Shown: positions 3,118 through 53,465, counted from the first letter of the stretch. The stretch is 64,000 nt of DNA from Takakia lepidozioides (GCA_030704615.1 CM060734.1:13888001-13952000), one strand, 5' to 3'. The notes: a model not told the origin generated them from the letters alone. Program-made: numbers and translations.

Positions 3118-5044
3118 CCCGGGATGGATTGCATTGCATTTCTGTGTATCTTGGACAGCAGAAGGCCAGGTTGGAAACCTACAACAGGGATGACTGTTAG
3201 ACCGAGTGTCTGGGGACCTGAGGCCAGCAATGAGCAATGGTGGTGACAAAAGTATACATGAGGATTCAGCTGGTTTGGACTATCTCTGCATGGAGACACG
3301 ACAGCCACTGTGACTGAAAAGGAGAGGGATCGGATCCTACAACGAGCCAAAGAGGTTCAAGTGGGATGGGACACACCTGCTACGGAGTGTGGGAGGTATG
3401 CGAGTGAGGATTGTGCCTCACCCAACACAGCGGCAACGGTTAGTGCGCATGCCCATGAGGAGAGTGGGGCATTTTGGGGTGCGACGCATCATAGTCTACT
3501 GCAGGGGCAATATTGGTGGCGTGGTGGTATGCACATAGAGGTGCAACAATTTGTGGATGGTGCATGGGTGTGTGACAGTGGTGTGTGCTTCATTCCAACG
3601 CACCTACACCACAATTGCACCCTACTTCCGATATGGGATTGGGCCACAGGTGGAGTCTAGACTTGCAGGGCATTTGCCACTGACCATGCGCCACAACAAG
3701 TACGTGTGGTGATGGTGGAGCACTTCTCCAAGTGGATCGAATTGGTTCCATTGCATGATAAGGCTAGTGAGGGGGGCTGGCGTATGCATTCTTGGATTGT
3801 GTACTTAGACAATTCGGTGCTCTAGCTGAGGTAGCGTATCACGGATCAGAGGAGAGAGTTCTTGGGGGAGTTTCAGGCGTTGTGTGACAAGGCCTTGATA
3901 GACCACCGCCACCACTTCTCGGATCATCCTGAGGCCGATGCTTGGCGGAGAGGGTTGTGCAAATGGTTAAGAGGGGTTGTTTGCGCAAGGATGGATTGCA
4001 AAGGGACATCTTGAGATTGTGACCTTCAGCTACCCTGGTTAGCATGGGCTACAGGTTCAGCAAGTAAGCATCACTTGACTCGTTGCTCACTTATTTCCTT
4101 CTCTTTGGTGAGGCTAGATTTGCCTGCATCTATTCGCAGGGAGTTGCAATAGTCCTCAATTTGACGATCCGGACATGTGGGGCACGTGCATGAGTGGTCA
4201 GTGCGCGGAGTTGTTCAAGAAAGTCATGCCCATGCTTTCGAGAACCTTGCCCTTTGCACAACATCGTGATACGTTGAGGTATGAACCATACGTGGTGGGG
4301 CTATCATCCAGGGGTTCGGAGATTTCACCCTGGTGAACTATGTTTATCTGCCAGCAAGGACTGCTCCAACAACCCTGGATGTGACGGCAGGATGTGTTAT
4401 TCTGAGGGTTCGAGAGGTATTGCCCTTAGGCGTCCTGATCTTGGAGGGTCGGGATGGCATGACGTGGAAAGACCATGTGTGTAATTGCGCGCCATGTCAC
4501 CTTCCAAATGTCGATGGCGAATTGACCAAAACCTGGCAGTGGTTACCTGCAAGTTTGAGGTGCATGTGTGTGGGTTGCTAGAGGGGCAGCCACCATGCTG
4601 GTGTGTGATCGATGCTCTAGAGGTTGGCATAGGGATGCTTGACTCCACCTCTTGAGATGGTTCCTGTGGGGTGGTTATGTCGCATTGCATTGGATAGTGG
4701 GAGTGGATACAAACCATGGAAGGCTAAAGAAATGCAAGGTCAAGCTACTAGGAGACCAACACATGAGATCCTGGCTCAAGTTCACAGATTGCAAGACGGC
4801 GACTAACGATGGGGCTACTCTTGTACCCGGCCTCTTGGTCTATAGAGTTTGAGTATAATAGGGACAGTGATAGAGGACTTAGTACGGCTGGGTTGTGGCT
4901 ATTACATCTTGTAGCTATCTGGATTAGAGGGACCTAACCACCAACTAAGGGGCGGCGATGTGGCAGACTACTTTCTTGTGCATATATGTGGTGGTGTGGT
5001 TTGGACAGCGATGTAGTTGTGTAGCGATACGTATGCGCACGACA
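3118..5044 (+). mobile_element. Degenerate 3' relic (integrase, PHD, 3' terminus) of the MTase/PHD gypsy family
   Basis: Colinear with 13417-15960 (-), with many substitutions and frameshifts. Fragments include YVYL..TAPTTLDVTAG.VILRVREVLP.GVLILEGRDGMTWKDHV.NCAPCHLPNVDG. It ends in the family terminus ...GTATGCGCACGACA at 5044. Confidence 0.92.
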
Positions 5045-13416: not shown

Positions 13417-13606
13417 TGTCGTGCGCATACATATCGCTACACAACTACATCGCTGTCCAAAACCACACAACACATGTGCACACCACACACTAGTATACCA
13501 CTAGTCTACCACTAGTCCAGCCACTAGTCCAACCACTAGGCTACAACTAGTCAGTCACTAGGCTGCCACTACGCTGCCCACTATGGCAGTCACTAGTCCA
13601 CACAAT
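13417..13606 (-). repeat. Split direct repeat Y, terminal copy (190 bp, ACTAG-rich)
   Basis: Appears identical by eye to 13935-14124. It forms the element's 3' end (...GCGCACGACA in element sense). Confidence 0.95.
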
Positions 13607-13932
13607 GATAAAGAAGAAGAATACAAGCACAAGCTCATGCGAGCTCACAAAGCTGAAGCATAAACTCATGCATATATAACCTCATCACTCAAATACAAGT
13701 CAAGCCAAGTGCACCCCACGCCATGGGGAATCCACACTACGGCGCCATAGCTAGGCGCGGTGAGGCTCAACTCGAGAAAGATGAGCCTCCCGCGCTTGCC
13801 GTGAAGATAACCACTCCAGGGCCTAAATCTGCCTTGACCCCTGGATTGACACTTGGGCCAATCCCAAATGTCAATATGTAAAAGCTAGCTATTTCCTAGC
13901 TAGTTTCACACTAGTGGTAAAATAACTTGACA
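13607..13932 (-). repeat. Split direct repeat X, internal copy (326 bp)
   Basis: Matches 24619-24944 with about 3 mismatches seen, and also matches 52929-53246. Confidence 0.95.
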
Positions 13933-13934
13933 GC

Positions 13935-14124
13935 TGTCGTGCGCATACATATCGCTACACAACTACATCGCTGTCCAAAACCACACAACACATGTGCACA
14001 CCACACACTAGTATACCACTAGTCTACCACTAGTCCAGCCACTAGTCCAACCACTAGGCTACAACTAGTCAGTCACTAGGCTGCCACTACGCTGCCCACT
14101 ATGGCAGTCACTAGTCCACACAAT
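13935..14124 (-). repeat. Split direct repeat Y, internal copy
   Basis: Duplicate of 13417-13606, separated from X by the dinucleotide GC (13933-13934). Confidence 0.95.
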
Positions 14125-14134
14125 CGCCCCCCTA
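14125..14134 (-). promoter_or_regulatory. Candidate polypurine tract (TAGGGGGGCG) directly upstream of internal Y
   Basis: A G-run abuts the first Y in element sense. A similar TAAGGGGCGGCG is retained in the relic at about 4946-4957. Confidence 0.5.
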
Positions 14135-14382
14135 GCTGGTGCTTAGGTCCCTCTAAGTCCAGGTAGCCACAAGATGTGATAGTGACCATAGCCTCACTAA
14201 GTCCTCCACCACTATCCCTACTACACTCAAACTCGATAGATCAAGAGGCCGGGTGCAAGAGTTGCCCCATCGTTAGTCGCCGTCTTGCAACCTGTGAACT
14301 TGAGCTTGGGATCTCATGTATTGACTCCTATGAGCTTGGCCTCCCATGTCTTGTTAGCTGCCTCCAGTCATGTCCACTGCCA

Positions 14383-17300
14383 CTATCCCAAGCAGTGTGG
14401 ACACAACCAATCTCCGTCAGGAACCTTCTCAAGAGGTGGTGTCAAGCATCCCATATGCCAACCCCTTGAGCACCGATCACACACCAGCATGGTGGCTGCC
14501 CCTTTGGCAGACCCACAGAGCATGCACCTCAAACCTGCAGGTACCACTGCCAAGTTTGGGTCAACTCTGCCATCGACATTGGGAAGGTGACATGGCGCAC
14601 AATTACGCACATGGTCTTTCCAAGTCATGCCATCCCGACCCTCTAAGATCAGGACCCCTGAGGGCAACACCTCTCGAACCCTCAGAATAACACGCCCTGC
14701 AGTAACATCCAGAGTCGTAGGAGCAGTCTGCTGCAAATAAACATAGTCACCAGGGCTAAACCTCCGAACCCCAGGACGATATCCTCCACCACGTATAGTG
14801 GCATACCTCAACGTATCACGGTGCTGTGCAATGGCAAGGTTCTCAAAAGCCATGGGCATGACTTTCTTGAACAACTCTGCACGCTGATCACATGCACGTA
14901 CCCACACGTCCGGATCGTCAAGGTTAAGGACTTGAGCAGTGTCCCTACGAATGGCTGCAGGCAAATCCGGCTCTCGGCCAAAGAGAAGGAAATATGGTGA
15001 GAAGGAGGCAAGTGATGCTTGTTTGCTGAACCTGTAGCCCATGGCTAACCAAGGAACCTGAAGATCCCAATCTCCTAGGTGTCCCTTCTGCAAGCCATAC
15101 TTGCGCAAACCCCTCTTCACCGTCTGAACAACTCTCTCTGCTAAGCCATCGGCCTCAGGATGATCCCGAGAAGTGGTGCGGTGGTCTATCAAGGCTTTAT
15201 CACACAAAGCCTGAAACTCCCCCAAGAACTCTCTCCCTTGGTCCGTGAGTACCTCAGCTGGAGCACCAAATCGGCTAAGCACACGATCCAAGAATGCATA
15301 CGCAGCCCCCTCACTAGCCTTGTCAGGCAATGGAACCAACTCAATCCACTTGGAGAAGTGCTCCACCATCACCAACACATATCTGTGGTGGCGCATAGTC
15401 AGTGGCAACGGTCCTGCGAAGTCAAGACTCCACCTGTAGCCCAATCCCATGATAGGTAAAGGATGCAACTGTGGTGTAGGGGCGTTGAATGAAGCACGCA
15501 CCCTGTCACACACCATGCACCTAGCCACAAACTGTTGCACCTCTGTATGCATACCACGCCACCAATACTGCCCCTGCAGTAAACTGTGAGTGCGTCGCAC
15601 TCCAAAATGCCCCAACTCCTCATGGGCATGCCGCACTAACCGTGCACGCTGTGTGGGGTGAGGCACAATCCTCACCCGACCATCCTCCCACACTCGAAGT
15701 AGGTGTATCCCCTCCCACTTGAACCTCTTGGCTCGTTGCAGGATCCGATCCCTCTCCCTGGCAGTCACAATGGCTGCCGTGTCTCCCGTGCGGAGGTAGT
15801 CCAACACAGCCGAATCCTCATGTATATCTCTGGCACCACCTAGCTCATCACTAGCCTCAGGGTCCTCAGACACTCCGTCTACAGTCATCCCTGTTGTAGG
15901 TCCAATCTGACCTCCCGATGCCAAGATACACAAAAATGCAGATGCGTGCCATCCCGGCACCATCTCCTCGTCCGTCTCACCATGCCACCGAGCTCCAGTG
16001 TCATCCTGCTGGCTCATGCATGGATTGCGACTCAATCCATCCGCATCCCGATTGACCAAACCCGGTCGATGCACAACCTGAAAGTCATACTCCTGGAGTA
16101 TAAGTGCCCACCGTGCAAGCTTCCCTGTAAGCTTGTCTGACTCCATCAACCACTTGAGTGGCTGGTGATCCGTGACAAGGGTGAAAAGATTGCCGTATAG
16201 ATAGCACCTGAAGTGTGCCACGGCCCACACTGCAGCTAAGCACTCTCCCTCATATGAGCTGTACTTAGCCTCTGCAGCGTTGTTCGAGCGGCTAGCGTAA
16301 GCCACTACGAACTCTCTTCCCTCATCATCCACCTGTGTGAGCACCGCTCCAAGCCCCAGCATGCTCCAATCCGTATGCAGCTGAAAGGGACGCCCCCTGA
16401 TAGGTCGTCTCAAGATAGGCGCCGAGGTCAACCTCGCCTTGAGCTCTTGAAAAGCTCGTTCCTGCTCATCTTCCCACTGCCACTCCTGGTCCACCTTGGT
16501 CAGCTTGGTTAGAGCCTTTGCAATGGTACTAAATCCCTTGACAAACCGTCTATAATAGTTTGCCAACCCCATGAAAGCTCGAACTCGGCTCACATCCGTG
16601 GGGCGTGGAATTTGTGCAATGGCCTCTACCTTAGTCTGCTGTACCCCCAATCCTCCAGGATATATCATGTGACCCAGATACTCAATCTGGTTGTGGAAAA
16701 ACTTGCACTTCCCCGGATGCAACTTCAATCCGTGCGCTCTCAAGCGCTCCAATACCACCTGAAGGTGTCTCTCATGCTCCTCCATCGTAACACTAAAGAT
16801 GATGATGTCATCTATGTAGCACCGAGCAAAGTCCACCCCTGCTAGAATCCTATCCATGACTCTCTGAAACTCTGCAGGAGCATTCTTAAGCCCAAATGGT
16901 AAGAACCGCCACTGATATAGGCAATCCTTGCCGTGCTCATTGATCCCCCAGAATGCCGTCTTCTGCTTGTCCGCCTCCTTGATTGGCAACTGGTGATATC
17001 CGGATCGTAAATCCAAAGTGCTAAAGGCCTTAGCATGCCCGATGGCATCAAAGATCTCCTCTGGTGTTGGCATGGCATACTTATCGGACTTGGTCTGACG
17101 ATTTACAGGCCGGTAATCACCGCACATACGTCTCTCCGTCCAATTGCCATAGACATCCTTCTTGGCTGGCATCACTGTGGCTGAAGCATACTCTCCACCA
17201 GAGAGCTCCACCAAACCTGCCTCCCAGAGATCTTGAGTCCTCATCTGAATCAAAGACCTCTCCATGTCACTGTATCTATAGGGTCTCCGAAAGATTGGCG

Positions 17301-17517
17301 TGTCAGTGGCCAACTCAATACGGATCTCTTGACCCTTCAGTGCTCCCAAGTCCTTCAAACTGAAGGCAAAGCAATTCCTGTAAGCCCTCAGGAACCGCCG
17401 TATACGTCGTCTCTCTCCTCCGGTGACAATGGGTCCAATGTCAGGCTCCCAATTGTCCTCCGTAACTACAACCTTAAGTCCAGTGGGCTTAGAGGTAGAG
17501 GACGCGTCCCGTGGTTG
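14383..17517 (-). CDS. Pol: reverse transcriptase - RNase H - DDE integrase - C-terminal PHD finger (probably made by readthrough of the ORF1 stop)
   Basis: RT: CGDYRPVN, LDLRSGYHQ, PFGLKNAP, YIDD. RNase H: TDWS, YEGECLA, TDHQPL, DADGLSR. Integrase: HEELGH..CMVC, LDFAG, TDQG, GLAER. PHD: CMLC..CDRC..WHMGC..WLCPHC. The listed ORF start at 17358 is TTG, and the frame is open up to the ORF1 stop. Confidence 0.95.
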   Translation of the reverse strand, partial: QPRDASSTSKPTGLKVVVTEDNWEPDIGPIVTGGERRRIRRFLRAYRNCFAFSLKDLGALKGQEIRIELATDTPIFRRPYRYSDMERSLIQMRTQDLWEAGLVELSGGEYASATVMPAKKDVYGNWTERRMCGDYRPVNRQTKSDKYAMPTPEEIFDAIGHAKAFSTLDLRSGYHQLPIKEADKQKTAFWGINEHGKDCLYQWRFLPFGLKNAPAEFQRVMDRILAGVDFARCYIDDIIIFSVTMEEHERHLQVVLERLRAHGLKLHPGKCKFFHNQIEYLGHMIYPGGLGVQQTKVEAIAQIPRPTDVSRVRAFMGLANYYRRFVKGFSTIAKALTKLTKVDQEWQWEDEQERAFQELKARLTSAPILRRPIRGRPFQLHTDWSMLGLGAVLTQVDDEGREFVVAYASRSNNAAEAKYSSYEGECLAAVWAVAHFRCYLYGNLFTLVTDHQPLKWLMESDKLTGKLARWALILQEYDFQVVHRPGLVNRDADGLSRNPCMSQQDDTGARWHGETDEEMVPGWHASAFLCILASGGQIGPTTGMTVDGVSEDPEASDELGGARDIHEDSAVLDYLRTGDTAAIVTARERDRILQRAKRFKWEGIHLLRVWEDGRVRIVPHPTQRARLVRHAHEELGHFGVRRTHSLLQGQYWWRGMHTEVQQFVARCMVCDRVRASFNAPTPQLHPLPIMGLGYRWSLDFAGPLPLTMRHHRYVLVMVEHFSKWIELVPLPDKASEGAAYAFLDRVLSRFGAPAEVLTDQGREFLGEFQALCDKALIDHRTTSRDHPEADGLAERVVQTVKRGLRKYGLQKGHLGDWDLQVPWLAMGYRFSKQASLASFSPYFLLFGREPDLPAAIRRDTAQVLNLDDPDVWVRACDQRAELFKKVMPMAFENLAIAQHRDTLRYATIRGGGYRPGVRRFSPGDYVYLQQTAPTTLDVTAGRVILRVREVLPSGVLILEGRDGMTWKDHVRNCAPCHLPNVDGRVDPNLAVVPAGLRCMLCGSAKGAATMLVCDRCSRGWHMGCLTPPLEKVPDGDWLCPHCLG

Positions 17518-20500
17518 CTATGCTGCAACCTCTTGAGCAGTACTCCCTACCTGCTCAGTCAATGACAAGGCATCATCCTGCCCCATCATCTCATCCTTGA
17601 GGACCTCCTCAACTCGAGAAGAATCCCCAACCTCATCCATCACAGCCGCCTTGGCTGCCAACTCCCTCTGAACCTCGAGCACCTCCCACGTGTGCCATGG
17701 ATGCATGCACCCCGTGGTCCTCACATGCTCGCCCCCACTCACTGCCTGTACCGTCTCGGTAGGCAGAGAGACCATTGAGGGAAGTGTATTCCGCACTCTG
17801 CGTTGCTCAGCTAGAGCCAAGCTGATAATCCAGGTCAAGCAATTGAGATCCATTGCTTGCCCCAACACTTGACGACGTGATGCCTCAGAAAGAGACGACA
17901 CCGCCGTGGTACCAGTGGTAAAACCCATTGCCCGCTCACGCTCGTCAGCATTAGGCTCCACTAACTGCTGCAACTGAGCATCCCACAGGAGGCCAGGTCC
18001 ACTATCCCGGAAAGCATGCGATCCTGGGAAGCTGAGCAGTGTAGGTAATGCTGCTCGTGGTTGACCCACCTTGTTGACCACTGCCAAAGGCGAACGGTCA
18101 TCGTGTCTCACACGTTGAGACTGCCTCCCTGTGTCCAGAATGTTATCCACTGTGAGATGTGCTGGCCGCTGCACCCCATCAAATGCACGCTTGAGCAGTG
18201 CGGGTGGCATCATGTTAGTCCACCATAGCCGTGGACGATGAGCCCGTGACCCCACTGTAGCTGCATCTAGCAACACTGCTGACCCAAGCCACGACCGGAC
18301 TTGATGCACACTGGCCATCACCCTGGCCCGAGAATCGCCCATCAGTGGCACATTCTCCAAGATGTATGCTGGAGATACAGCTTGATGAAGCTGCAAGTGG
18401 CGCAAAACCCGCACCATCTCCCAAAACAGACCCGACCTCGAGTCTCGCAATCCATTGCCATGCCCGGCTGATGAATGCCCTTGGCAGGGCCAACCTGCCA
18501 CTACCAGATCAATGGAGCCAACCCGCTCCAAATCCTGCGCCCCCAGCAACGAAATGTCTGCTGGCAAGGCCTGCTGATATCCACGAATTGCAGACACCGA
18601 CAACAACTCAGGGTACCGCTGCACCAACTGAGCAACATGGCGAAGTGAAACGCGTCGTGCAGTCTCATCCCTCTCCACATACAGGTAACGCCGAACTCGT
18701 ACACCTGCCTGTAACACAGCAGCCAATCCGGTGCTGATCCCGCCAAACAAGTCCAGAAGACAAATGCCTTCATCCGGAGACTGCCACACAATAGGTGTGG
18801 TGTCCAATGGAGACAATTGAGGTGGTCCTGGTGCAATCCCCACACTCTCCTCCTCTCCTGACGGTACAAAAGCCTCCACCCAGGCTTGTTGCACCCGTCG
18901 ATCAGCATCCCGCTGCAAATCCTTGCTCGTGCCCCACAATGGAGTCTGAGCAACCATGGTAGGCAACTCCGCCATACCATACATGTCATCCTGCTCTCCC
19001 GGAGGTGGTACATCCTCTGAATGAGCATTGCCCTCAAGCAACTCTCTAGGCCAACTCACTGCCGCTGTGAATGCTGCTAGTGTCGGCATCTTGCCTCGCT
19101 GGGCAACCGCAACTCCTCCTATGAACGTCACAGGGAGCTGCACACGCCGGCCCTCCCCTGACTGCCATGCAGGCCTATAGGAAGCTGACTCCTCCCAAAA
19201 ATCCAGGGTGAAGCCCATGGGGTACAACACTGCCCCACCAACCAGGACATCGTATGAGACTGCGTCTGTCACAATGGCCTTGGCTCGCATCACTGAGCCA
19301 TCTGTAGGGTGATCCGGCCGTAGTCTGATAGCCAACTCATGCCGTGTCATGCCCCGAGCCTGCTCCGATCCTCCCAGAGACGTCTGTATCTGGAAAGGAC
19401 AAGGCTCCATATCCGCCTCCGTGAGGCCCAAGCCTGCAATAGCAGCTCTGCCCAGCATCAGTGGCTGAGCTCCCGAGTCCAACAAGACTCGCAGTGGCCG
19501 GTACCTCTTGCCTGCCGGTCCACTCAAACAGAAAATGCCATCCTGGTTGTCTAACATGACAACTCCAGGTGTCACCATGGCGCGCTCAATGGCTGGCCTA
19601 GCTGGCAGCTCCATCAACCTGGCAGCTGCAGCTTGCCATGGCGCCGCCGTGGCAGTCTTGACCCTCAAATCCGAGGATCCCTCCGGCACTACACCTCCCA
19701 CTATCTCCGCAGAAGATGAAGTAACCTCCCCACTCTCACAGAGTGTAGCTGCCAGCCTGAACACCTCAGCTGGTCTTACCCCCGGCGTCGCAATCATGGT
19801 AGCCGAGAACAATGGAGCCTGGCACACAGATGTGGCCGCTCCTAGCAGCACACTAGCTGCCGTAGCCTTGGCAACACTAGGTAGTGGTGCTACCCGTGTA
19901 GCTCTCCCCAATGGCATAGTAACCTCCGCCTCGGTAACAGTCGGGCGAGAACTAGGTGCCATGGATGGCGTCGACACTGTCTCCGCCAATGTGAATGACT
20001 GAGGAAGCCTAGCCTGACGGCTTGCCTCCCCACGCTGTGGATCCAACTCCACCTCTGCACCTCGTGGCTCAGGAACTCGTGCTGCTCCTCGAGTCACGGC
20101 TGCAGCAGACTCCACCTGCACTAGTGGTAGTGCTGCTCCACACATGAATCCCATGCCTCCCATATCTCCTCCCTCAGGAGCAGGAGGTGGACCATCCGGC
20201 CTTAGAGCCGGTACCACCTGAGCTGTAGCCATGGCAGCGAGCCTCTGCTCTAGCTGCTGAAGCCGGTTGGCCATGCCTTGGTCAACACCCTGACCTCCGC
20301 GTCCTTGGCCACGTTGAGCTTGCCCTTGGCCTGCACCTCGTGGCTGGCCACCTCGTCCTCTCTGGGCTGCTCCACCTCGCCCCCGGCCACCATTGTTCCC
20401 TTGGAACTGGCCTGGGCGCAACTCAGGATGCAAACCATAACACTGGGCCTCTCCATGCCCGTGCTTGCCACAATGCCCACACTGCAACTGTGCAGGCTGT

Positions 20501-21483
20501 GCATGTGCCGACCCTTTGCCTCCCTCTGGGCAATCCTTCTTGACATGGGGTCCTCCACATGTCCAGCACACCACATCCGCCCGTTGTTGGCCAGCAAATG
20601 AAGGGAGAGACCCCTGCATCTGAGGTCCTCTCTGCCCTTCCCTGAGCTTCACCTGAGCCCCCTTGTTGCCTTGAGCACGTTGAGGTAGTGGTTGGCTAGG
20701 AGCACCACTACCCCGTGGTGTCTCCTTAGCAAATCCCACCATGACCACTCGTTCCTCCACCATGTTGAGCTCTATCCGCTCTGCCAGCAAAAACACATTT
20801 GCTAAGGTGGGTTGGGCCGCTTGTAGGAGAGTTGCATCCCGCACCCTTCTCCTCAGCTCCTTGTCCAATATCCCATACCAGAATTGGACTGCCTGAGCTT
20901 CCGTAACCCCTTGGGTTACATTTATCAAGCGCCTCATGCGAGTGAAAGCCTCCCTCAAGCTCTCGGTCGGCTTCCGTTGGAACTCTTGCAAGCTCCGCAA
21001 CTTCTCTGTCCTCACCCCTTGGTAGTTCCCTCTCAACTCTTCGAAGAACTCCACAACAGGGTTGAAGGCAGGCACGGGTGCTAGTGCTGGTGCGGTAGTG
21101 GCTTGGGTGGATGTCGTAGCTACTGTACCACCAGTCCCACTGCTACTTGCTGAAGCTGCCGGTGCAGCGGCAGGTGTAGCCACTGCCCTCGTGGCTCTAG
21201 TGCCCCTAGTGATGGAGACATAGTCGGGTGACCAGTACATCCTCCACTCCTCGATCTCAACCTCATGCCCCCGCCTGAACTCATGGTAATCATCCATAGG
21301 CGGCCCCTCAAGGTGCTGAAACAGCCCTTTCCATGCCATGAACGGCGTAAATAGTTGTGGATTGCGCATTTGCTGCAAATCACACCAACTATCAAACTCT
21401 TGGATAAAATCATCCAACTCAATGGTGCCCACCGCCCCAGAGTACCTTCGTGGCCCCTTGGTAGCTCCATACATCTCCTCCAT
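17518..21483 (-). CDS. Gag - two zinc knuckles - aspartic protease - C5 cytosine DNA methyltransferase polyprotein
   Basis: Gag capsid-like region (LDDFIQEFDSWC...LQEFQRKPTESLREAFTRMRRL), knuckles CWTCGGPHVKKDC and CGHCGKHGHGEAQC, protease VLLDSGA...DVLVG, and MTase motifs I-X. The first in-frame ATG is at 21483; the frame is open from 21723 (GTG). Confidence 0.93.
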   Translation of the reverse strand: MEEMYGATKGPRRYSGAVGTIELDDFIQEFDSWCDLQQMRNPQLFTPFMAWKGLFQHLEGPPMDDYHEFRRGHEVEIEEWRMYWSPDYVSITRGTRATRAVATPAAAPAASASSSGTGGTVATTSTQATTAPALAPVPAFNPVVEFFEELRGNYQGVRTEKLRSLQEFQRKPTESLREAFTRMRRLINVTQGVTEAQAVQFWYGILDKELRRRVRDATLLQAAQPTLANVFLLAERIELNMVEERVVMVGFAKETPRGSGAPSQPLPQRAQGNKGAQVKLREGQRGPQMQGSLPSFAGQQRADVVCWTCGGPHVKKDCPEGGKGSAHAQPAQLQCGHCGKHGHGEAQCYGLHPELRPGQFQGNNGGRGRGGAAQRGRGGQPRGAGQGQAQRGQGRGGQGVDQGMANRLQQLEQRLAAMATAQVVPALRPDGPPPAPEGGDMGGMGFMCGAALPLVQVESAAAVTRGAARVPEPRGAEVELDPQRGEASRQARLPQSFTLAETVSTPSMAPSSRPTVTEAEVTMPLGRATRVAPLPSVAKATAASVLLGAATSVCQAPLFSATMIATPGVRPAEVFRLAATLCESGEVTSSSAEIVGGVVPEGSSDLRVKTATAAPWQAAAARLMELPARPAIERAMVTPGVVMLDNQDGIFCLSGPAGKRYRPLRVLLDSGAQPLMLGRAAIAGLGLTEADMEPCPFQIQTSLGGSEQARGMTRHELAIRLRPDHPTDGSVMRAKAIVTDAVSYDVLVGGAVLYPMGFTLDFWEESASYRPAWQSGEGRRVQLPVTFIGGVAVAQRGKMPTLAAFTAAVSWPRELLEGNAHSEDVPPPGEQDDMYGMAELPTMVAQTPLWGTSKDLQRDADRRVQQAWVEAFVPSGEEESVGIAPGPPQLSPLDTTPIVWQSPDEGICLLDLFGGISTGLAAVLQAGVRVRRYLYVERDETARRVSLRHVAQLVQRYPELLSVSAIRGYQQALPADISLLGAQDLERVGSIDLVVAGWPCQGHSSAGHGNGLRDSRSGLFWEMVRVLRHLQLHQAVSPAYILENVPLMGDSRARVMASVHQVRSWLGSAVLLDAATVGSRAHRPRLWWTNMMPPALLKRAFDGVQRPAHLTVDNILDTGRQSQRVRHDDRSPLAVVNKVGQPRAALPTLLSFPGSHAFRDSGPGLLWDAQLQQLVEPNADERERAMGFTTGTTAVSSLSEASRRQVLGQAMDLNCLTWIISLALAEQRRVRNTLPSMVSLPTETVQAVSGGEHVRTTGCMHPWHTWEVLEVQRELAAKAAVMDEVGDSSRVEEVLKDEMMGQDDALSLTEQVGSTAQEVAA
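17840..18770 (-). other. C5 cytosine methyltransferase domain (DNMT3-like, non-permuted) within ORF1
   Basis: Motif I LDLFGGI, II YVERD, III ADI, IV AGWPCQGHS (catalytic Cys), VI LENV, VIII AHRPRLWWTN, IX ERERAMGF, X RRQVLGQAM. Confidence 0.93.
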
Positions 21484-21974
21484 TGTGTCCCACAACAATG
21501 GCAAAGAAACAACTTGCACCGCCGGTATGAGCCCTCCTGATTCACAATCCGAATCAGAACCTTCCGTGGAAGACACAGGAGGTGAAGGTGGCCTAAACCG
21601 CACACCTCGTCTCGTGTACCCACTAGTATCGCTAGTGCTCGAACCGGCACTGTCCCCAGCAACTAGTGGCACCTCCGTGTTGACACTCAACCGGTCATGA
21701 ACATGCCCTAACCCCCTCTCCACAAGGTAACCGGGTAGAGAACCTGTTGCGGCTTATGGTTTGGAATACTAAGTTCCTAACATAGCCTACACCTGAACTT
21801 GCATGACCATGGGAATATCATGAAGATACTCCTCAAACCGCCCTCCACGAGCTTCAAAATTCGGCCTTCCAGACCACATGCCAGTCTTTAGTCCACCAGT
21901 GCCTCCACGAGTCAGCACAGGCCATCCACAGGTCAACACGGGCCACCACATACCAGCACAGGCCCACACAGCTC

Positions 21975-23430
21975 ACTGGTCACAGCCATCACAGTCCCAC
22001 AGGCCACTGGGCACAGCCTGTCACAGCCCCTCACAGCTCGTCACAGCCTCAAAGGCCTCAGGCACGGCCTGTCACAGCCCCTCACAGCCCGTCACAGCCT
22101 CAAAGGCCTCAGGCACGGCCTGTCACAGCCCCTCACAGCCCGTCACAGCCTCAAAGGCCTCAAGCACGGCCTGTCACAGCCCCTCACAGCCCATCACAGC
22201 CCCAAAGGCCTCAGGCACGGCCTGTCACAGCCCCTCACAGCCCGTCACAGCCTCAAAGGCCTCAGGCACGGCCTATCACAGCCCCTCACAGCCCGTCACA
22301 GCCCCAAAGGCCTCAGGCACGGCCTGTCACAGCCCCTCACAGCCCATCACAGCCCCAAAGGCCATGGGCACAGCCTGTCACAGCCCCGCACAGCCCGTCA
22401 CAGCCCCAAAGGCCACTGGCACAGCCTGTCACAGCCTGACACAGCCCGTCACAGCCCCACAGGGCACAGGGCACAGCCTGTCACAGCCCATCACAGCCCA
22501 TCACAGCCTCAAAGGCCTCAGGCACGGCCTGTCACAGCCCCTCACAGCCCATCACAGCCCCAAAGGCCATGGGCACAGCCTGTCACAGCCCGTCACAGCC
22601 CCACAGGCCTCAGGCACGGCCTGTCACAGCCCCTCACAGCCCGTCACAGCCCCAAAGGCCATGGGCACGGCCTGTCACAGCCCCTCACAGCCCCTCACAG
22701 CCTCAAAGGCCTCAGGCACGGCCTGTCACAGCCCCTCTCAGCCCGTCACAGCCCCAAAGGCCATGGGCACGGCCTGTCACAGCCCCTCACAGCCCGTCAC
22801 AGCCCCAAAGGCCACTGGGCACAGCCTGTCACAGCCTGACACAGCCCGTCACAGCCCCACAGGGCACAGGGCACAGCCTGTCACAGCCCCACAGGGCACA
22901 GGGCACAGCCTGTCACAGCCCATCACAGCCCATCACAGCCTCAAAGGCCTCAGGCACGGCCTGTCACAGCCCCTCACAGCCCGTCACAGCCTCAACCCAT
23001 CACAGCCCCAAAGGCCTCAGGCACGGCCTGTCACAGCCCCTCACAGCCCGTCACAGCCCCAAAGGCCTCAGGCACGGCCTGTCACAGCCCCTCACAGCCC
23101 GTCACAGCCCAAAGGCCCCTCACAGCCCGTCACAGCCTCAAAGGCCTCAGGCACGGCCTGTCACAGCCCCTCTCAGCCCGTCACAGCCCCAAAGGCCATG
23201 GGCACGGCCTGTCACAGCCCCTCACAGCCCCAAAGGCCACTGGGCACAGCCTGTCACAGCCTGACACAGCCCGTCACAGCCCCACAGGGCACAAGGCACA
23301 GCCTGTCACAGCCCATCACAGCCCATCACAGCCTCAAAGGCCTCAGGCACGGCCCGTCACAGCTCGCCACAGCCTGACACAGCCCGTCACAGCCCGTCAC
23401 AGCTTGCCACAGCCTGTCACAGCCCCACAC
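21975..23430. repeat. Tandem array of (T)CACAGCC units (~51-bp higher-order repeat) in the retroelement 5' leader
   Basis: AAAGGCCTCAGGCACGGCCTGTCACAGCCCCTCACAGCCCGTCACAGCCTC and variants are repeated over ~1.45 kb. A shorter version is at 50935-51390. Confidence 0.95.
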
Positions 23431-24618
23431 ATGGCCGCTCTGGCAGTTTAGCCATTTCTCCAAGGGGTTTAGCCACGCCAAGCTAGGGTTTGTGTCTCTT
23501 GGACTCTAGGCTTCTTTCCACCGAGCTATGGTGGCTGTGAGGAAATCAGCAAGGTATCCTTGCTCTTTCGGCTCCCACACACCACCATAGTAGCCCTAAG
23601 CCATGAGGTGGTTGCCACAAACCAAGCCTTCTTTCTCACTTAGCCTCCCCAAACACGCCACTAAACTCAATGGCAAACAACCAAGCCCTGCTGGTTCCCA
23701 GCCCTTGTGAGCACTCATTCAAGCACTCCCCTCATTGGCCATAGCATCTGTCTTAGAGCCTATTCCAGCCCTCTACACCTGTTGCTTCAAGAGTTGCGCT
23801 CCCTTCAAGCTTGAAGTTGAAACCCCAACTCACATAGGCCCTACAAGTGCTGTTCTTTCACTCCAAGTAGAAACCAGCCCTAGACCTTCCGTTCTAGCTC
23901 TCTAAGGCTTGAAAACAAGAGCCTCAATGGGCTGAAGGCATGCTCCACACATGCCCCACTCTCACCATAAGAGAATCAGCTCCTTTGCTTCATTTCTTGC
24001 ACCCACAAACCTGATAATACAAGCTTCAGCAGGCTGAAAGCATGCTCTACATGCCCTACAGGGAAACCAGCCCCTTCCTTCCTTTCTTGCACTCCCACAC
24101 CTAAAAGTGCAAGCCTTCACCAGGCTGATAGCATGCTCCACACATACATTGCCCTCACATAAGGGAAGTCAGCCCTTCCCTCTTCCTTGCTTGCCCTCCA
24201 AGCTTGAAGATGGAAGCTTCAATGAGCTGAATACATGCTCCACACATGCAACCTCTTCACACAAGAGATATCAGCCCCCTATCTTGGCTCCTTGGCTCCT
24301 TGATGCTCTCTATGACAAGACTAAGCACTCCATAGCCTTTGCCAAGCTCCTGAAACCCTAAGGCTTACATTTCCAGCCACAAGACACTTCTCTTGTGGTG
24401 CAAGAACTCTTCTTCCAAGCTCTGAAACCCTAGGTGCACATTCCATGGCCTTGCCGCACCTCTTAGCTCCTGTTCCAGCCCTGCTCTTGCCATGACAAGA
24501 GCCCTCTCAATGCTGAAGCTCGAGATTGAAACCCAATCTCACCATACTCCACAAAGTGCACTGATTTGCCCCAAGCAAAATCAGCCCTTTCGCTTGGTCT
24601 TGCAATCCTTCACACAAT

Positions 24619-24944
24619 GAAAAAGAAGAAGAATACAAGCACGAGCTCATGCGAGCTCACAAAGCTGAAGCATAAACTCATGCATATATAACCTCATCAC
24701 TCAAATACAAGTCAAGCCAAGTGCACCCCACGCCATGGGGAATCCACACTACGGCGCCATAGCTAGGCGCGGTGAGGCTCAACTCGAGAAAGATGAGCCT
24801 CCCGCGCTTGCCGTGAAGATAACCACTCCAGGGCCTAAATCTGCCTTGACCCCTGGATTGACACTTGGGCCAATCCCAAATGTCAATATGTAAAAGATAG
24901 CTATTTCCTAGCTAGTTTCACACTAGTGGTAAAATAACTTGACA
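24619..24944 (-). repeat. Split direct repeat X, 5'-terminal copy; candidate promoter
   Basis: Begins TGTCAAGTTATTTT in element sense. A TATA-like TTATATAT lies at 24691-24684, about 65 bp before the end of X. It is not followed by Y. Confidence 0.9.
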
Positions 24945-26125
24945 AGGTGGATGAAATTGGGATTTCAACCCCCCTGGATGGAAATTTCGGCGCCGCATTT
25001 CCATCCGGAGGGAGGAAATGTTCTGCCAAGTAGGCCTCTCGCCCCCCGAAATAATTTTCATCCAACTCCTCCCGGACGGAAATTCGGCGCCGCATTTCCA
25101 TCCGGGAGGATGAAGTTGGGTGCCGAGGCTGCCCTTGTGGTGGGGGCAGTGGCAGCGAATAGGAAAGGGGGCTGAAGCACCCTTGAGTGCCGAAGGCACT
25201 CAAGGAGGCAGAGGCGCTCACTAGGTGGAGCCCCGTAAACCGGGTTGCGGTGGTGGGGGCTCCACGAGGGGTGGTGGTAGCGTAGGGAGTCGTAGTGGGG
25301 GTGGCATAGGACTCACCATGAGGCTGAGGCCTTGTGGTGGGGTGTCTTGGGACTCACCGCGGTCCATTGGGGCCGTGGTGGGTGGGCCAAAGACTCACCG
25401 CGATTCACCCCGGAAAGTTGAGGGTCTAGGAGGTGGTGCATCAGATTTGGACTGGGCTACTTGTGGAACCCCCGCAGAGTGGCCCTCTCTTCCCCCGAGA
25501 TCATTTTATCCGACCCCTCTGGATGGAAATTCGGCGCCGCATTTCCATTCGGGAGGATGAAGCTGGGTGCCAGGTGTTCTCTTCCCCCGAGACCATTTCA
25601 TCAGACCCCCCCTTGATGGAGATTCCGTGCCGAATTTCCATCCGGGGGGATGAACTTGGGTGCCAGGTGACCCTCTCTTCCGACGAGATCATTTCATCCG
25701 ACCCCGCCTGGATGGAAATTCGGCGCCGCATTTCCATCCGGGGGGATGAACTTGGATGCCACCTGGCCGGCTCTCCTCCCTAAACGACTTCATCCAGCTC
25801 CCCCCGGATGGAAATTTGGCACCGCATTTCCATCCGGGGGGATGAAATGTTCTGCCAAGTGGGCCTCTCGCCTCCCAAACGATTTCATCCAACTTCCCTT
25901 GGGTGGAAATGCGGTGCCGAATTTCCATCCTGGGGGATGAACTTCGGTGCCAGGTGGCCCTCTCTTCCCCCGAGACCATTTCATCCAACCCCCCCTGGAT
26001 GGAAATTCGGCGCCGCAATTCCATCCGAAGGCCTCAAGTTGGGTGCCAGCTATGCTTCTCTCCCCCCGAGAAGATTTCATCCAACTCCCACCGGATGGAA
26101 ATTCAGCGCTGCATTTCCATCCAGA
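24945..26125. repeat. Palindromic ~90-bp tandem repeat array, right part
   Basis: About 9 copies of GGATGGAAAT-TCGGCGCCGC-ATTTCCATCC with spacers such as GGGGGATGAACTTGGGTGCCAGG..CTCTCTTCCCCCGAGACCATTTCATCC. Confidence 0.9.
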
Positions 26126-33512: not shown

Positions 33513-36500
33513 TCGTGGAGGCACTGGTGGACTGCCTAAGGACTGGCATGTGGTCTTGAAGGCCGAATTTTGAAGCTCGTGGAGGGCGGTTTGAGGAGTA
33601 TCTTCATGATATTCCCATGGTCATGCAAGTGAGGGAAGAGAGGAGAGGAAGAGTGTTGGGATGAGGGCATGCTGGGGTTAGGCATTGCTTTAGCTTCTCT
33701 TCCTCGTAGTTTCCACCCTCTCATTAGGCCAAGACCTTTCCGTAGGTGGAGGCAAGAGTCAGTCCGGGTTTGGGCTGGGGTGTCCTTGTAGGAGCAACAC
33801 CGGGGAGTTGTTTTTGGTGTGGGGGAGTTGTCGTTCTGATTTTGTGTGTTTGGATCCCCTCCATACCTGCATGCTTGACTGTGCACCATGCTAGTTTTGT
33901 GTGGGCGCTTGTTTTTATAGGTGATTGGTCCGGATTTGATCACTGGCCAGTCCTAGAGCATGCTGTCGATGGTGAGGCTGGGGTGATGACCAGCCAGACC
34001 ATCATTGTTTCTCCTGTGGTGAGGTTGGAGGTGATGACCAGCCAACCATAGGAGTGCTTGCGGTGGATGCAGGTACAGGTGTAGGCTATGTTAGGAACTT
34101 AGTATTCCAAACCATAAGCCGCAACAGGTTCTCTACCCGGTTACCTTGTGGAGAGGGGGTTAGGGACATGTTCATGACCGGTTGAGTGTCAACACGGAGG
34201 TGCCACTAGTTGCTGGGGACAGTGCCGGTTCGAGCACTAGCGATACTAGTGGGTACACGAGACGAGGTGTGCGGTTTAGGCCACCTTCACCTCCTGTGTC
34301 TTCTACGGAAGGTTCTGATTCGGATTGTGAATCAGGAGGACTCATACCGGCGGTGCAAGTTGTTTCTTTGCCATTGTTGTGGGACACAATGGAGGAGATG
34401 TATGGAGCTACCAAGGGGCCACGAAGGTACTCTGGGGCGGTGGGCACCATCGAGTTGGATGATTTTATCCAAGAGTTTGATAGTTGGTGTGATTTGCAGC
34501 AAATGCGCAATCCACAACTATTTACGCCTTTCATGGCATGGAAGGGGCTGTTTCAGCACCTAGAGGGGCCGCCTATGGATGATTACCATGAGTTCAGGCG
34601 GGGGCATGAGGTTGAGATCGAGGAGTGGAGGATGTACTGGTCACCCGACTATGTCTCCATCACTAGGGGCACTAGAGCCACGATGGCAGTGGCTACACCT
34701 GCCGCTGCACCGGCAGCTTCAGCAAGTAGCAGTGGGACTGGTGGTACAGTAGCTACGACGTCCACCCAAGCCACTACCGCACCAGCACTAGCATTCGTGC
34801 CTGCCTTCAACCCTGTTGTGGAGTTCTTCAAAGAGTTGAGAGGGAACTACCAAGGGGTGAGGACAGAGAAGTTGCGGAGCTTGCAAGAGTTCCAACGGAA
34901 GCCGACCGAGAGCTTGAGGGAGGCTTTCACTCGCATGAGGCGCTTGATAAATGTAACCCAAGGGGTTACGGAAGCTCAGGCAGTCCAATTCTGGTATGGG
35001 ATATTGGACAAGGAGCTGAGGAGAAGGGTGCAGGATGCAACTCTCCTACAAGCGGCCCAACCCACCTTAGCAAATGTGTTTTTGCTGGCAGAGCGGATAG
35101 AGCTCAACATGGTGGAGGAACGAGTGGTCACGTGGGATTTGCTAAGGAGACACCACGGGGTAGTGGTGCTCCTAGCCAACCACTACCTCAACGTGCTCAA
35201 GGCAACAAGGGGGCTCAGGTGAAGCTCAGGGAAGGGCAGAGAGGACCTCAGATGCAGGGGTCTCTCCCTTCATTTGCTGGCCAACAACGGGCGGATGTGG
35301 TGTGCTGGACATGTGGAGGACCCCATGTCAAGAAGGATTGCCCAGAGGGAGGCAAAGGGCCGGCACATGCACAGCCTGCACAATTGCAGTGTGGGCATTG
35401 TGGCAAGCACGGGCATGGAGAGGCCCAGTGTTATGGTTTGCATCCTGAGTTGCGCCCAGGCCAATTCCAAGGGAACAATGGTGGCCGGGGGCGAGGTGGA
35501 GCAGCCCAGAGAGGACGAGGTGGCCAGCCACGAGGTGCAGGCCAAGGGCAAGTTCAACATGGCCAAGGACGCGGAGGTCAAGGTGTTGACCAAGGCATGG
35601 CCAACCAGCTTCAGCAGCTAGAGCAGAGGCTCGCTGGGCTATAGCTCAGGTGGTACCGGCTCTAAGGCCGGATGGTCCACCTCCTGCTCCTGAGGGAGGA
35701 GATATGGGAGGCATGGGATTCATGTGTGGAGCAGCACTACCACTAGTGCAGGTGGAGTCTGCTGCAGCCGTGACTCGAGGAGCAGCACGAGTTCCTGAGC
35801 CACGAGGTGCAGAGGTGGAGTTGGATCCACGGCGTGGGGAGGCAAGCCGTCAGGCTAGGCTTCCTCAGTCATTCACATTGGCGGAGACAGTGTCGACGCC
35901 ATCCATGGCACCTAGTTCTCGCCCGACTGTTATCGAGGCGGAGGTTACTATGCCATTGGGGAGAGCTACACGGGTAGCACCACTACCTAGTGTCGTCAAG
36001 GCTACGGCAGCTAGTGTGCTGCTAGGAGCGGCCACATCTGTGTGCCAGGCTCCATTGTTCTCGGCTACCATGATTGCGACGCCGGGGGTAAGACTAGCTG
36101 AGGTGTTCAGGCTGGCAGCTACACTCTGTGAGAGTGGGGAGGTTACTTCATCTTCTGCGGAGATACTGGGAGGTGTAGTGCCGGAGGGATCCTTGGATTT
36201 GAGGGTCAAGACTGCCACGACGGCGCCATGGCAAGCTGCAGTTGTCAGGTTGATGCAGCTGCCAGCTAGGCCAGCCATTGAGCGCGCCATGGTGACACCT
36301 GGAGTTGTCATGTTAGACAACCAGGATGGCATTTTCTGTTTGAGTGGACCAGCAGGCAAGAGGTACCGGCCACTGCGGGTCTTGTTGGACTCGAGAGCTC
36401 AGCCATTGATGCTGGGCAGAGCTACTATTACAGGCTTGGGCCTCACGGAGGCGGATATGGAGCCTTGTCCTTTCCAGATACAGACGTCTCTGGGAGGATC

Positions 36501-39500
36501 GGAGCAGGCTCGGGGCATGACACGGCGTGAGTTAGCTATCAGACTATGGCCGGATCACCCTACAGATAGCTCAGTGATGCGAGCCAAGGCCATTGTGACA
36601 GACGCGGTCTCATACGATGTCTTGGTTGGTGGGGCAGTGTTGTACCCCATGGGCTTCACCCTGGATTTTGGGAAGGAATCAGCTTCCTATAGGCCTGCAT
36701 GGTAGTCAGGGGATGGCCGGCGTGTGCAGCTCCCTGTGACGTTCATAGGAGGAGTTGCGGTTGCCCAGCGAGGCAAGATGCCGACACTAGCAGCATTCAC
36801 AGCGGCAGTGAGTTGGCCTAGAGAGTTGCTTGAGGGCAACGCTCATTCAGAGGATGTGCTACCTCCGGGAGAGCAGGATGACATGTATGGTATGGCGGAG
36901 TTGCCTACCATGGTTGATCAGACTCCATTGTGGGGCACGAGCAAGGATTTGCAGCGGGATGCTGATCGACGGGTGCAACAAGCCTGGGTGAAGGCTTTTG
37001 TACCGTCAGGAGAGGAGGAGAGTGCGGGGATTGCACCAGGACCACCTCGGTTGTCTCCATTGGACACCACACCTATTGTGTGGCAGTATCCGGATGAAGG
37101 CATTTGTCTTCTAGACTTATTTGGCGGGATCAGCACCGGATTGGCTGCGGTGTTACAGGCAGGTGTACGAGTTCGGCGTTACCTGTATGTGGAGAGGGAT
37201 GAGACTGCACGATGCATTTCACTTCGCCATGTTGCTCAGTTGGTGCAGCGGTACCCTGAGTTGTTGTCGGTGTCTGCAATTCTTGGATATCAGCAGGCCT
37301 TGCCAGCAGACATTTCGTTGCTGGGGGCGCAGGATTTGGAGCGGGTTGGCTCCATTGATCTAGTAGTGGCAGGTTGGCCCTGCCAAGGGCATTCATCAGC
37401 CGGGCATGGCAATGGATTGCGAGACTCGAGGTCGGGTCTGTTTTGGGAGATGGTGCGGGTTTTGCGCCACTTGCAGCTTCATCAAGCTATATCTCCAGCA
37501 CTGGAGAATGTGCCACTGATGGGCGATTCTCGGGCCAGGGTGATGGCCAGTGTGCATCAAGTCCGGTCATGGCTTGGGTCAGCAGTGTTGCTAGATGCAG
37601 CTACAGTGGGGTCACGGGCTTATAGTCCACGGCTATGGTGGACTAACTTGATGCCACCCGCACTGCTCAAGCGTGCATTTGATGGGGTGCAGCGGCCAGC
37701 ACATCTCACAGTGGATAGCATTCTGGACACAGGGAGGCAGTCTCAGCGTGTGAGACACAATGACCGTTCGCCTTTGGCAGTGGTCAACAAGGTGGGTCAA
37801 CCACGAGCAGCATTACCTACACTGTTCAGCTTCCCAGGATCGCATGCTTTCCGGGATAGTGGACCTAGCCTCCTGTGGGATGCTCAGTTGCAGCAGTTAG
37901 TGGAGCCTAATGCTGACGAGCGTGAGCGGGCAATGGGTTTTACCACTGGTACCACGGCGGTGTTGTCTCTTTCTGAGGCATCACGTCATCAAGTGTTGGG
38001 GCAAGCAATGGATCTCAATTGCTTGACCTGGATTATCAGCTTGGCTTTGGCTGAGCAACGCAGAGTGCGGAGTACACTTCCCTCGATGGTCTCTCTGCCT
38101 ACCGAGATGGTACAGACAGTGAGTGGGGGTGAGCATGTGAGGACCACGGGGTGCATGCATCCATGGCACACGTGGGAGGTGCTCGAGGTTCAGAGGGAGT
38201 TGGCAGCCAAGGCGGCTGTGATGGATAAGGTTGGGGATTCTTCCCGGGTTGAGGAGGTCCTCAAGGATGAGATGATGGGGCAGGATGAGGCCTTGTCATT
38301 GACTGAGCAGGCAAGGAGTACTGCTCAAGAGGTTGCAACATAGCAACCAATGGACGCGTCCTCTACCTCTAAGCCCACTGGACTTAAGGTTGCAATTACG
38401 GAGGACAATTGAGAGCCTGACATTGGACCCATTGTCACCGGAGGAGAGAGACGACGTATACGGCGGTTCCTGAGGGCTTACAGGAATTGCTTTGCCTTCA
38501 GTTTGAAGGACTTGGGAGCACTGAAGGGTCAAGAGATCCGTATTGAGTTGGCCACTGACACGCCAATCTTTCGGAGACCCTATAGATACAGTGACATGGA
38601 GAGGTCTTTGATTCAGATGAGGACTCAAGATCTCTGGGAGGCAGGTTTGGTGGAGCTCTCTGGTGGAGAGTATGCTTCAGCCACAGCGATGCCAGCCAAG
38701 AAGGATGTCTATGGTAATTGGACGGAGAGACGTATGTGCGGTGATTACCGGCCTGTAAATTGTCAGACCAAGTCCGATAAGTATGCCATGCCAACACCAG
38801 AGGAGATCTTTGATGCCATCGGGCATGCTAAGGCCTTTAGCACTTTGGATTTATGATCCGGATATCACCAGTTGCCAATCAAAGAGGCGGACAAGCAGAA
38901 GACGGCATTCTGGGGGATCAATGAGCACGGCAAGGATTGCCTATATCAGTGGCGGTTCTTACCATTTGGGCTTAAGAATGCTCCTGCAGAGTTTCAGAGA
39001 GTCATGGATAGGATTCTGGCAGGGGTGGACTTTGCTCGGTGCTACATAGATGACATCATCATCTTTAGTGTTACGATGGAGGAGCATGAGAGACACCTTC
39101 AGGTGGTATTGGAGCGCTTGAGAGCGCACGGATTGAAGTTGCATCCGGGGAAATGCAAGTTTTTCCACAACCAGATTGAGTATCTAGGTCACATGATATA
39201 TCCTAGAGGATTGGGGGTACAGCAGACTAAGGTAGAGGCCATTGCACAAATTCCACGCCCCACGGATGTGAGCCGAGTTCGAGCTTTCATGGGGTTGGCA
39301 AACTATTATAGACGGTTTGTCAAGGGATTTAGTACCATTGCAAAGGCTCTAACCAAGCTGACCAAGGTGGACCAGGAGTGGTAGTGGGAAGATGAGTAGG
39401 AACGAGCTTTTCAAGAGCACAAGGTAAGGTTGACCTCGGCACCTATCCTGAGACGACCTATCAGGGGGCGTCCCTTTCAGCTGCATACGGATTGGAGCAT

Positions 39501-53246: not shown

Positions 53247-53465
53247 GTCTCCAAAGCCTCCATCCCGCGTCCTTGCTGTGCATAAGCTGTGATCATCGCA
53301 GTCCAAGACACCACATCTCGGTCGGCCATATTTTCCAACACTCCTACATCATCAGAACAATGTCCAGAACAACATATGGTACGATTCCAACTTCGATAAT
53401 GTCAGCATGGACCTCTTTGCCCTTTTGCAGGGCTGCCATAATCACACACGCATTGCAAACACAGT
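53247..53465 (-). pseudogene. 5' fragment of the same PPR gene
   Basis: Minus strand reads ..CNACVIMAALQKGKEVHADIIEVGIV..MADRDVVSWTAMITAYAQQGRGMEALET. It joins (T)YEQMMREEVKPD at 41976 through the TSD AGAC. Confidence 0.88.

Follow-up and report, generated by a model that had tools for sequence, protein, structure and literature searches.

Why would a plant retrotransposon encode its own cytosine DNA methyltransferase (DNMT)? The question is raised by a 64,000-nt stretch of the Takakia lepidozioides genome (GCA_030704615.1 CM060734.1:13888001-13952000; hereafter the window, to which all positions refer) that carries an intact Ty3/Gypsy-type retrotransposon on its minus strand. The element encodes Gag, protease and a DNMT3-like C5 cytosine methyltransferase in a first open reading frame (ORF1), and reverse transcriptase (RT), RNase H (RH), integrase (IN) and a PHD finger in a second (ORF2; Table 1). 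We consider it fairly probable that the DNMT3-like domain methylates the element's own cDNA before integration. The assignment to Ty3/Gypsy is based on the protease-RT-RH-IN order, a Ty3-like RT and a DDE integrase (rve), with Ty3 Gag-Pol as the best PDB match of ORF2 (E = 6.5e-96), and on TG...CA termini flanked by a 4-bp target site duplication (TSD). Such ends with a duplication of 4-6 bp are a feature of Ty3/Gypsy long terminal repeat (LTR) retrotransposons (PMC12440569). The Retrotrans_gag match of ORF1 is weak (E = 0.0012, below the cut-off).

The methyltransferase domain is complete, unpermuted and DNMT3-like rather than DRM-like. All six motifs named in a preliminary description of this DNA were located on the minus strand in linear order: LDLFGGISTG (18756-18727), GWPCQ (18495-18481), ENV (18357-18349), AHRPRLWW (18243-18220), ERERAMGF (17943-17920) and RRQVLGQAMD (17877-17848). 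The frame around them is indeed uninterrupted; the 1401 codons given for it count from a GTG and correspond neither to its stop-to-stop length nor to its length from the first ATG (Table 1). The domain scores 47.8 bits with PF00145 (E = 1.8e-12; cut-off 22 bits), a match whose absence would have refuted the preliminary description, and the protein atlas assigns it PF00145 alone. Its best sequence match in PDB is DNMT3A (1.4e-11), and a profile built from 29 family members places DNMT3A (5e-24) ahead of DRM (1e-12) and HhaI (6e-8). The AlphaFold model (pLDDT 92.1, pTM 0.92) retrieves DNMT3A as the best Foldseek match (E 1.9e-20, TM 0.72/0.83), all matches listed being DNMT3A, DNMT3B or DNMT3C, and the structural alignment with cellular DNMT3 has about 22% identity. 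Profile and predicted fold bear out the DNMT3 affinity that had been suggested. Cellular DNMT3 proteins (human DNMT3A/B; moss PpDNMT3b, PMC6453930) are nearest in fold and sequence and share the linear motif order, whereas the element domain lacks PWWP and ADD domains, is single-exon and is embedded in a polyprotein. A plant DRM identity was rejected, as the circular permutation of DRM (motifs VI-X before I-V) is absent and DRM aligns to the motif I-V part only.

The catalytic motifs are widely retained. Among 29 aligned members the Glu and Asn of ENV are invariant and PC is nearly so; conservation from bryophytes to chlorophytes extends to the catalytic Cys, to Glu of ENV and to Arg of motif VIII, and the SAM-binding motif I is kept too. 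Of the best 150 representatives of a wider profile search, 132 have G[WFS][PE]C and 143 have EN[VTSIA]; many carry EC instead of PC (GWECQ replaces GWPCQ in 65). Nei-Gojobori counts for 21 chosen pairs, two of them near-identical, indicate that the DNMT is under purifying selection like the RT, with dN/dS of 0.06-0.19 between lineages, contrary to the neutral evolution that would have refuted the preliminary description. The values are 0.065 for the window element and locus L002 (RT 0.063), 0.064 for the window element and L001, 0.137 for L020-L021 (RT 0.168), 0.107 for L020-L050, 0.185 for L002-L003, and 0.18-0.19 for L049-L053 and L049-L055, which are elements with the DNMT between RH and IN. 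Variants in sequencing reads point the same way, with 15 of 24 DNMT-region variants synonymous against about 26% synonymous sites, although the 24 come from a selected list (40 listed of 215).

Relatives of the element occur across green plants. They include Marchantia polymorpha (62-77% identity over the DNMT domain; one cluster with 18 members), Sphagnum fallax and Closterium, and others were found in Calypogeia, Riccia, M. paleacea, two more Sphagnum species and Scenedesmus sp. The profile search returned 554 clusters (50% identity) at E<=1e-30. In the best 150 representatives the DNMT lies after the protease or before RT in eight and after RH or before IN in 97, and 45 have no other domain. 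The wide occurrence in relatives and read data answers the earlier concern that the domain might be missing from most family members. It also qualifies the view of an unexpected intact and recent copy in a land plant: the copy is intact and young, but it is no one-off, with many unannotated relatives in Marchantia and Sphagnum.

In a quick tree of 81 rows, in which cellular DNMT3 is represented by two animal sequences and none from plants, the element DNMTs form one group adjoining the animal pair (SH-aLRT 91-92, below the 95 mark), and the RH-DNMT-IN type is nested (support 89). The element DNMTs and the two animal sequences share a branch (SH-aLRT 97) relative to three prokaryote-type rows, in a tree with a non-monophyletic outgroup, thin sampling and no bootstrap. 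For the 54 elements with both domains (all nine of the first type and 45 of the 105 of the second, RH-DNMT-IN, type), RT-RH and DNMT trees are correlated (Mantel r 0.73, p 0.001; 22 of 51 splits shared), and both separate the two types alike (support 100 and 92). This pattern fits one ancient DNMT capture followed by a move within the polyprotein; alternatively, two separate captures may have taken place. A 1417-aa protein, P0291, has a weak RT match together with two methyltransferases, a related C5 enzyme and a Dam adenine enzyme; it is DIRS-like, its branch adjoins the Gypsy DNMT clade, and it is a lead for DNMT exchange between DIRS-like and Gypsy elements. Two proteins filed under the names of bacterial metagenome-assembled genomes (P0068, Minisyncoccia; P0173, Obscuribacterales) probably come from eukaryotic contigs binned as bacteria.

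The stop codon between DNMT and RT may set how much of each product is made. The window junction, UAG-CAA-CCA, fits exactly the type I (tobamovirus-type) readthrough motif UAG-CARYYA (PMC5382211), which here separates Gag-protease-DNMT from RT in a retrotransposon. An RT-frame stop lies at most 30 codons from RT in 30 of the 32 metagenome loci that have the DNMT upstream of RT. It is followed by CAR-YY-N in 27 of these 30 (in-frame background 1.1%) and by exact CARYYA in six (background 0.4%); the three loci without CAR-YY-N are decayed copies. CAR-YY is kept with different codons (CAA-CCA, CAA-CTA, CAG-TTA, CAA-TCA) in no fewer than four separate lineages, whose DNMT identity goes down to 52%, and Marchantia ORF1 proteins terminate at about the same distance past the DNMT. 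Given this conservation of stop and context across lineages, readthrough is likely, and it would make the DNMT part of the abundant product, along with Gag and protease.

In a different account the stop is a true terminator, the context is incidental, and Pol is made by splicing or re-initiation. A clade of Sphagnum-like elements has an ATG two codons 3' of the stop, which favours this account. The frames are nevertheless in phase in the window and in relatives without frameshifts, the CAR-YY context recurs through different codons, and the window ORF2 has no Met before residue 85, which already belongs to the RT-like region. We regard true termination as improbable.

The ends of the element differ from those of an ordinary LTR retrotransposon. 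Instead of two matching LTRs, the layout is X-coding-B-X-B: X1 forms the 5' end, and the 3' end consists of B1, X2 and B2, preceded by a purine run. The insertion is young, as X1 and X2 have 3 differences in 334 sites, in agreement with the roughly three counted before, and B1 and B2 have none in 190. A 4-bp TSD flanks six of six elements with both ends located: ACCT for the window element, AGAC for the second insertion in the window (described below), AAGG for L028, TACA for L017, ATTA for L044 and CACA for L022; L013, which has a B end without an X start, was left out of this count. A longer target duplication of 62 bp (13351-13412 = 24945-25006) was considered and rejected: these bases are one tandem unit of the repeat that surrounds the element, and the duplication directly next to the two ends measures 4 bp. 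The complete X-coding-B-X-B layout is present in L028, and L017 and L044 have the X-coding-B form. Self-comparison of 26 loci, many on contigs that are too short, detected the full split-repeat layout only in L028 and part of it in L009 and L022. The B1/X2 junction recurs in relatives (Table 1), the X2/B2 junction is not constant (it differs between the window, L028 and L022), and a CA-NN-TG pattern is found in three of nine RH-DNMT-IN loci, which is near chance.

In the ordinary LTR mechanism, plus-strand priming at the purine run sets the left end. With the run 5' of B1, this would give B, not X, as the left end. A tRNA primer site next to a 5' LTR follows the TGG rule; no TGG-type site was found after X1, no tRNA genes were found in the 64-kb window, and no self-priming complement of >=8 nt exists between the sequence 3' of X1 and X or B. 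The observed forms match the opening of a two-repeat or one-repeat circle (repeat = B-GC-X) at CA-GC-TG. We therefore infer that the DDE integrase uses this internal junction, possibly acting on the split repeats by way of a circle. The X-coding-B form can also result from B1-B2 recombination, and a linear integration route with unusual priming may take the place of the circle. Two loci contain other repeats: L058 (1-12073) has a 133-bp terminal repeat and was assembled as a circle, and L043 (1-10072) contains a 3.5-kb near-exact repeat. Each could be an assembly artefact or a tandem or circular element.

We propose the following life cycle for the element. Ribosomes would mostly stop past the DNMT, and a minority would read through UAG-CARYYA into RT-RH-IN-PHD, so that the DNMT would be made at Gag rather than Pol levels. 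At such levels the enzyme would be packaged in the particle, probably freed by the protease, and would methylate freshly made double-stranded cDNA, probably in the CG context. Arriving already marked, the copy would bear less likeness to naked foreign DNA. Insertion would fall to the DDE integrase, perhaps guided by the PHD finger, with the internal CA-GC-TG as attachment site and probably a circular or end-joined cDNA as substrate. In a broader form that we advance only tentatively, a Gypsy lineage as old as green plants would combine capsid-level DNMT3 by readthrough, cDNA pre-methylation and circular-cDNA integration by a DDE integrase cutting at CA-NN-TG. It would amount to a hybrid of LTR and DIRS replication, its DNMT and split repeats perhaps having been exchanged with DIRS-like elements.

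Several observations weigh against methylation of the cDNA by a capsid-level enzyme. The DNMT of KnitGypsy-Dnmt3, an element of the alga Klebsormidium nitens, gave no methylation in yeast, a result its authors call inconclusive (PMC5890265). With the DNMT after RH or before IN in 97 of the 150 best representatives, and with DNMT fused to RT in a few members, a Gag-level dose is not required family-wide. The exact CARYYA is present at only six of 30 junctions, most of the 27 with CAR-YY-N are near-copies from the one Sphagnum-like clade (CAA-CCC then ATG, where re-initiation is an alternative), and stop-free DNMT-RT fusions exist in L058/L059, which are one element and account for both stop-less loci among the 32, and in protein P0035. 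The dS values of deep pairs are near saturation, and dS is undefined for window-L003 and L047-L048; pairs of decayed copies have dN/dS of 0.35-0.69, and the window element and its second copy 0.51, as expected from decay after insertion. C-to-T changes from the intact element to that copy affect 4.8% of CG, 4.0% of CHG and 1.4% of CHH cytosines, and this CG and CHG bias fits ordinary host silencing and shows no benefit of self-methylation.

The enzyme could instead work during integration or later, with the target site or the freshly inserted copy as its substrate, and so set chromatin state or limit the element's own spread. In the RH-DNMT-IN order the DNMT could travel with the integration complex, the integrase carries a PHD finger, and self-limitation was raised as a possibility in 2018 (PMC5890265). 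The window lineage, however, has its DNMT on the Gag side of the stop, apart from the integrase, and the great abundance of the family in host sequencing runs does not suggest strong self-restraint; we think this role unlikely. That the domain serves the particle by binding DNA or RNA or as a structural part, with catalysis dispensable, seems rather unlikely to us: the yeast result for Klebsormidium and the frequent GWECQ would suit such a role, and the conservation of the catalytic Cys, ENV Glu, motif-VIII Arg and motif I from bryophytes to chlorophytes argues against it. It is scarcely credible that the domain is a recently captured fragment of a host DNMT3 riding as a neutral passenger. The dN/dS of 0.51 between the window copies would agree with neutrality, but purifying selection between lineages, the congruence of the DNMT and RT trees, and the 554 clusters with a range from liverworts to Scenedesmus do not. 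Methylation of the cDNA before integration remains our preferred explanation.

The concept itself has precedents, as the preliminary description noted: KnitGypsy-Dnmt3 and SymbioDIRS-Dnmt3 are both described by de Mendoza et al. 2018 (PMC5890265). KnitGypsy-Dnmt3 has Gypsy domains, a Dnmt3 in the Pol ORF, A-coding-B-A-B repeats and Ka/Ks<0.2, and is viewed there as an acquisition of the K. nitens lineage. The window element shares the Gypsy domain set, an intronless and unpermuted Dnmt3-like domain, purifying selection and DIRS-like repeats, and by description probably belongs to the same lineage; no named Klebsormidium protein was among the homologue matches. It differs in that its DNMT ends the Gag-protease ORF before a conserved stop and would be joined to Pol only by readthrough (the stop-free fusions of L058/L059 and P0035 apart), and in its range, which covers liverworts, mosses, Closterium and Scenedesmus instead of one algal lineage; the accessible text on KnitGypsy-Dnmt3 gives no target duplication, junction or readthrough. 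SymbioDIRS-Dnmt3 of Symbiodinium, whose domains carried out de novo CG methylation in yeast (PMC5890265), likewise has a Dnmt3-type domain in a retroelement with A-coding-B-A-B repeats. It carries a tyrosine recombinase, whereas the window element has a DDE (rve) integrase, TG...CA ends and a 4-bp TSD. Gypsy-7a_cRei of Chlamydomonas reinhardtii (bioRxiv 10.1101/2022.06.16.496473) is also a Gypsy element of the green lineage whose Gag-Pol contains a PHD finger; compared by description only, it has left and right LTRs and no DNMT among the domains listed in its figure legend. Two other identities were rejected. DIRS, PAT and Ngaro elements are excluded by the rve integrase and by the absence of a tyrosine recombinase match in ORF1, ORF2 or nine other element ORFs, and Troyka, with CG...CG ends, a 3-bp duplication and occurrence in animals only, differs in ends, duplication length and range.

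One further paper, which cites the 2018 work, mentions retrotransposon DNMT3 from "streptophytes and dinoflagellates", with land plants unnamed in the accessible text (PMC12344493). A literature search, with most subscription papers and Repbase outside its reach, found no report of a DNMT-bearing element from a land plant or chlorophyte, of a Gypsy element with split repeats, or of CARYYA in a retrotransposon. The concept is thus known from Klebsormidium, and what is new is the land-plant and chlorophyte range, the stop with CAR-YY-N, and the TSD and junction pattern on split repeats.

Table 1. Features of the intact element and of related insertions in the window.
Feature	Position	Strand	Remarks
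TSD, 5' side, 4 bp	24945..24948		ACCT in element sense; same 4-mer at 13413-13416
Repeat X1, element 5' end	24618..24944	-	TG start, CA end; 3 differences from X2 in 334 nt
51-bp tandem array, 5' leader	21980..23385		about 28 copies; tandem-repeat analysis
ORF1: Gag, two CCHC-type knuckles, aspartic protease, DNMT	17518..21753	-	1411 codons stop to stop; 1321 from first ATG at 21483
Two zinc-knuckle-like motifs (nucleocapsid)	20440..20568	-	sequence
Protease active-site motif LLDSGA	19468..19485	-	sequence; PF13650/PF13975 in relatives
DNMT3-like C5 cytosine methyltransferase domain	17794..18768	-	motifs I-X linear; catalytic PC, ENV, RxR intact
In-frame stop UAG-CAA-CCA (UAG-CARYYA), ORF1/ORF2 boundary	17512..17520	-	readthrough-type context; motif definition PMC5382211
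ORF2: RT, RNase H, DDE integrase, PHD finger	14383..17517	-	1044 aa, no stop, in phase with ORF1; first Met at residue 85
PHD finger, C-terminal in ORF2	14392..14526	-	PF00628, E = 1.8e-10
Polypurine-tract-like run 5' of B1	14125..14133	-	same run in L009, L020, L028
Repeat B1	13935..14122	-	TG...CA; repeat comparison
2-nt spacer at B1/X2 junction CA-GC-TG, predicted integrase attachment site	13933..13934	-	CA-GC-TG in L028, L009; CA-GT-TG in L020
Repeat X2	13606..13932	-	repeat comparison
Repeat B2, element 3' end	13417..13604	-	CA end; identical to B1
TSD, 3' side, 4 bp	13413..13416		matches 5' side
Copy 2: 3' part of second, broken insertion	33513..41975	+	97.5% identity; frameshifts and stops; DNMT motifs altered; X2 mostly deleted
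Copy 3: 5' part of second insertion	50872..53247	-	4-bp duplication AGAC in common with copy 2
Older 3' family fragment (integrase, PHD, polypurine tract, B)	3119..5044	+	about 84% identity; sequence comparison

The window contains a second insertion of the family. Copy 2 is 97.5% identical to the intact element over 7610 nt (163 substitutions, 7 indels). The preliminary description saw the methyltransferase motifs again in this copy, and four of the six are exact; two are altered, two residues next to ENV are lost to an in-frame 6-nt deletion, and the upstream part has frameshifts. Copy 2 is therefore dead. Copy 3 supplies the 5' part missing from copy 2, the same PPR gene adjoins both, and both have AGAC. 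Most simply, copies 2 and 3 would be one insertion in a PLS-type PPR gene, split by an inversion of about 17 kb. One break of the inversion is apparently within the element leader (33513-53463). PPR repeats are found at 41976-~46500 (plus strand) and 53248-53463 (minus strand), and the PPR gene at 41948-46500 is pseudogene-like, with internal tandem duplications (periods of 84, 260 and 372 bp) and broken frames.

Other features of the copies and their surroundings vary. The ORF1 frame is open for 90 codons 5' of the first ATG (21483-21753), with likeness to the N-termini of distant relatives such as P0016, and a 1-nt insertion at 21705 is common in other copies. The 51-bp array, whose ORFs gave no Pfam match, has about 28 units in the intact copy and about 8 in copy 3 (50937-51392). 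Copy 3 also has about 340 bp at the end of X1 (52589-52929) that are absent from the intact copy, a place where read-data contigs vary as well. The intact element is situated within a 96-bp satellite-like repeat with a palindromic core (13075-13414, 24945-26130), a 62-bp unit of which is duplicated exactly across the insertion site, and a 56-bp A-rich tandem array of about 10 copies occupies 30405-31018.

The family is abundant in public sequencing data. In one run, 111,995 of 2,790,647 contigs fall on 13200-25200; on 17300-19000 there are 18,458 contigs in this run and 23,278 in a second run of the same sample, and all 30 bins of the DNMT region are covered in four of four runs (three samples). 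These figures are not copy numbers and were not used to rank domains, and the contig numbers on the DNMT region indicate that many variant copies carry it.

Beyond what the preliminary description proposed, the analysis adds a green-plant-wide range, a conserved, probably leaky stop signal and an integrase-type footprint on split repeats. DNMT-bearing retrotransposons extend from one alga to land plants. In the model Marchantia, which is one of these, many ORF1 copies that look intact carry the annotation of hypothetical proteins and may be mistaken for host DNMTs in counts. The question asked in 2018, what use a transposon makes of its own DNMT, becomes testable in a genetic model with published methylomes, and the conserved stop makes a sharp prediction about the dose and location of the enzyme. 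If the circle model is true, a retroviral-type integrase uses a circle junction, and standard LTR finders would miss such elements.

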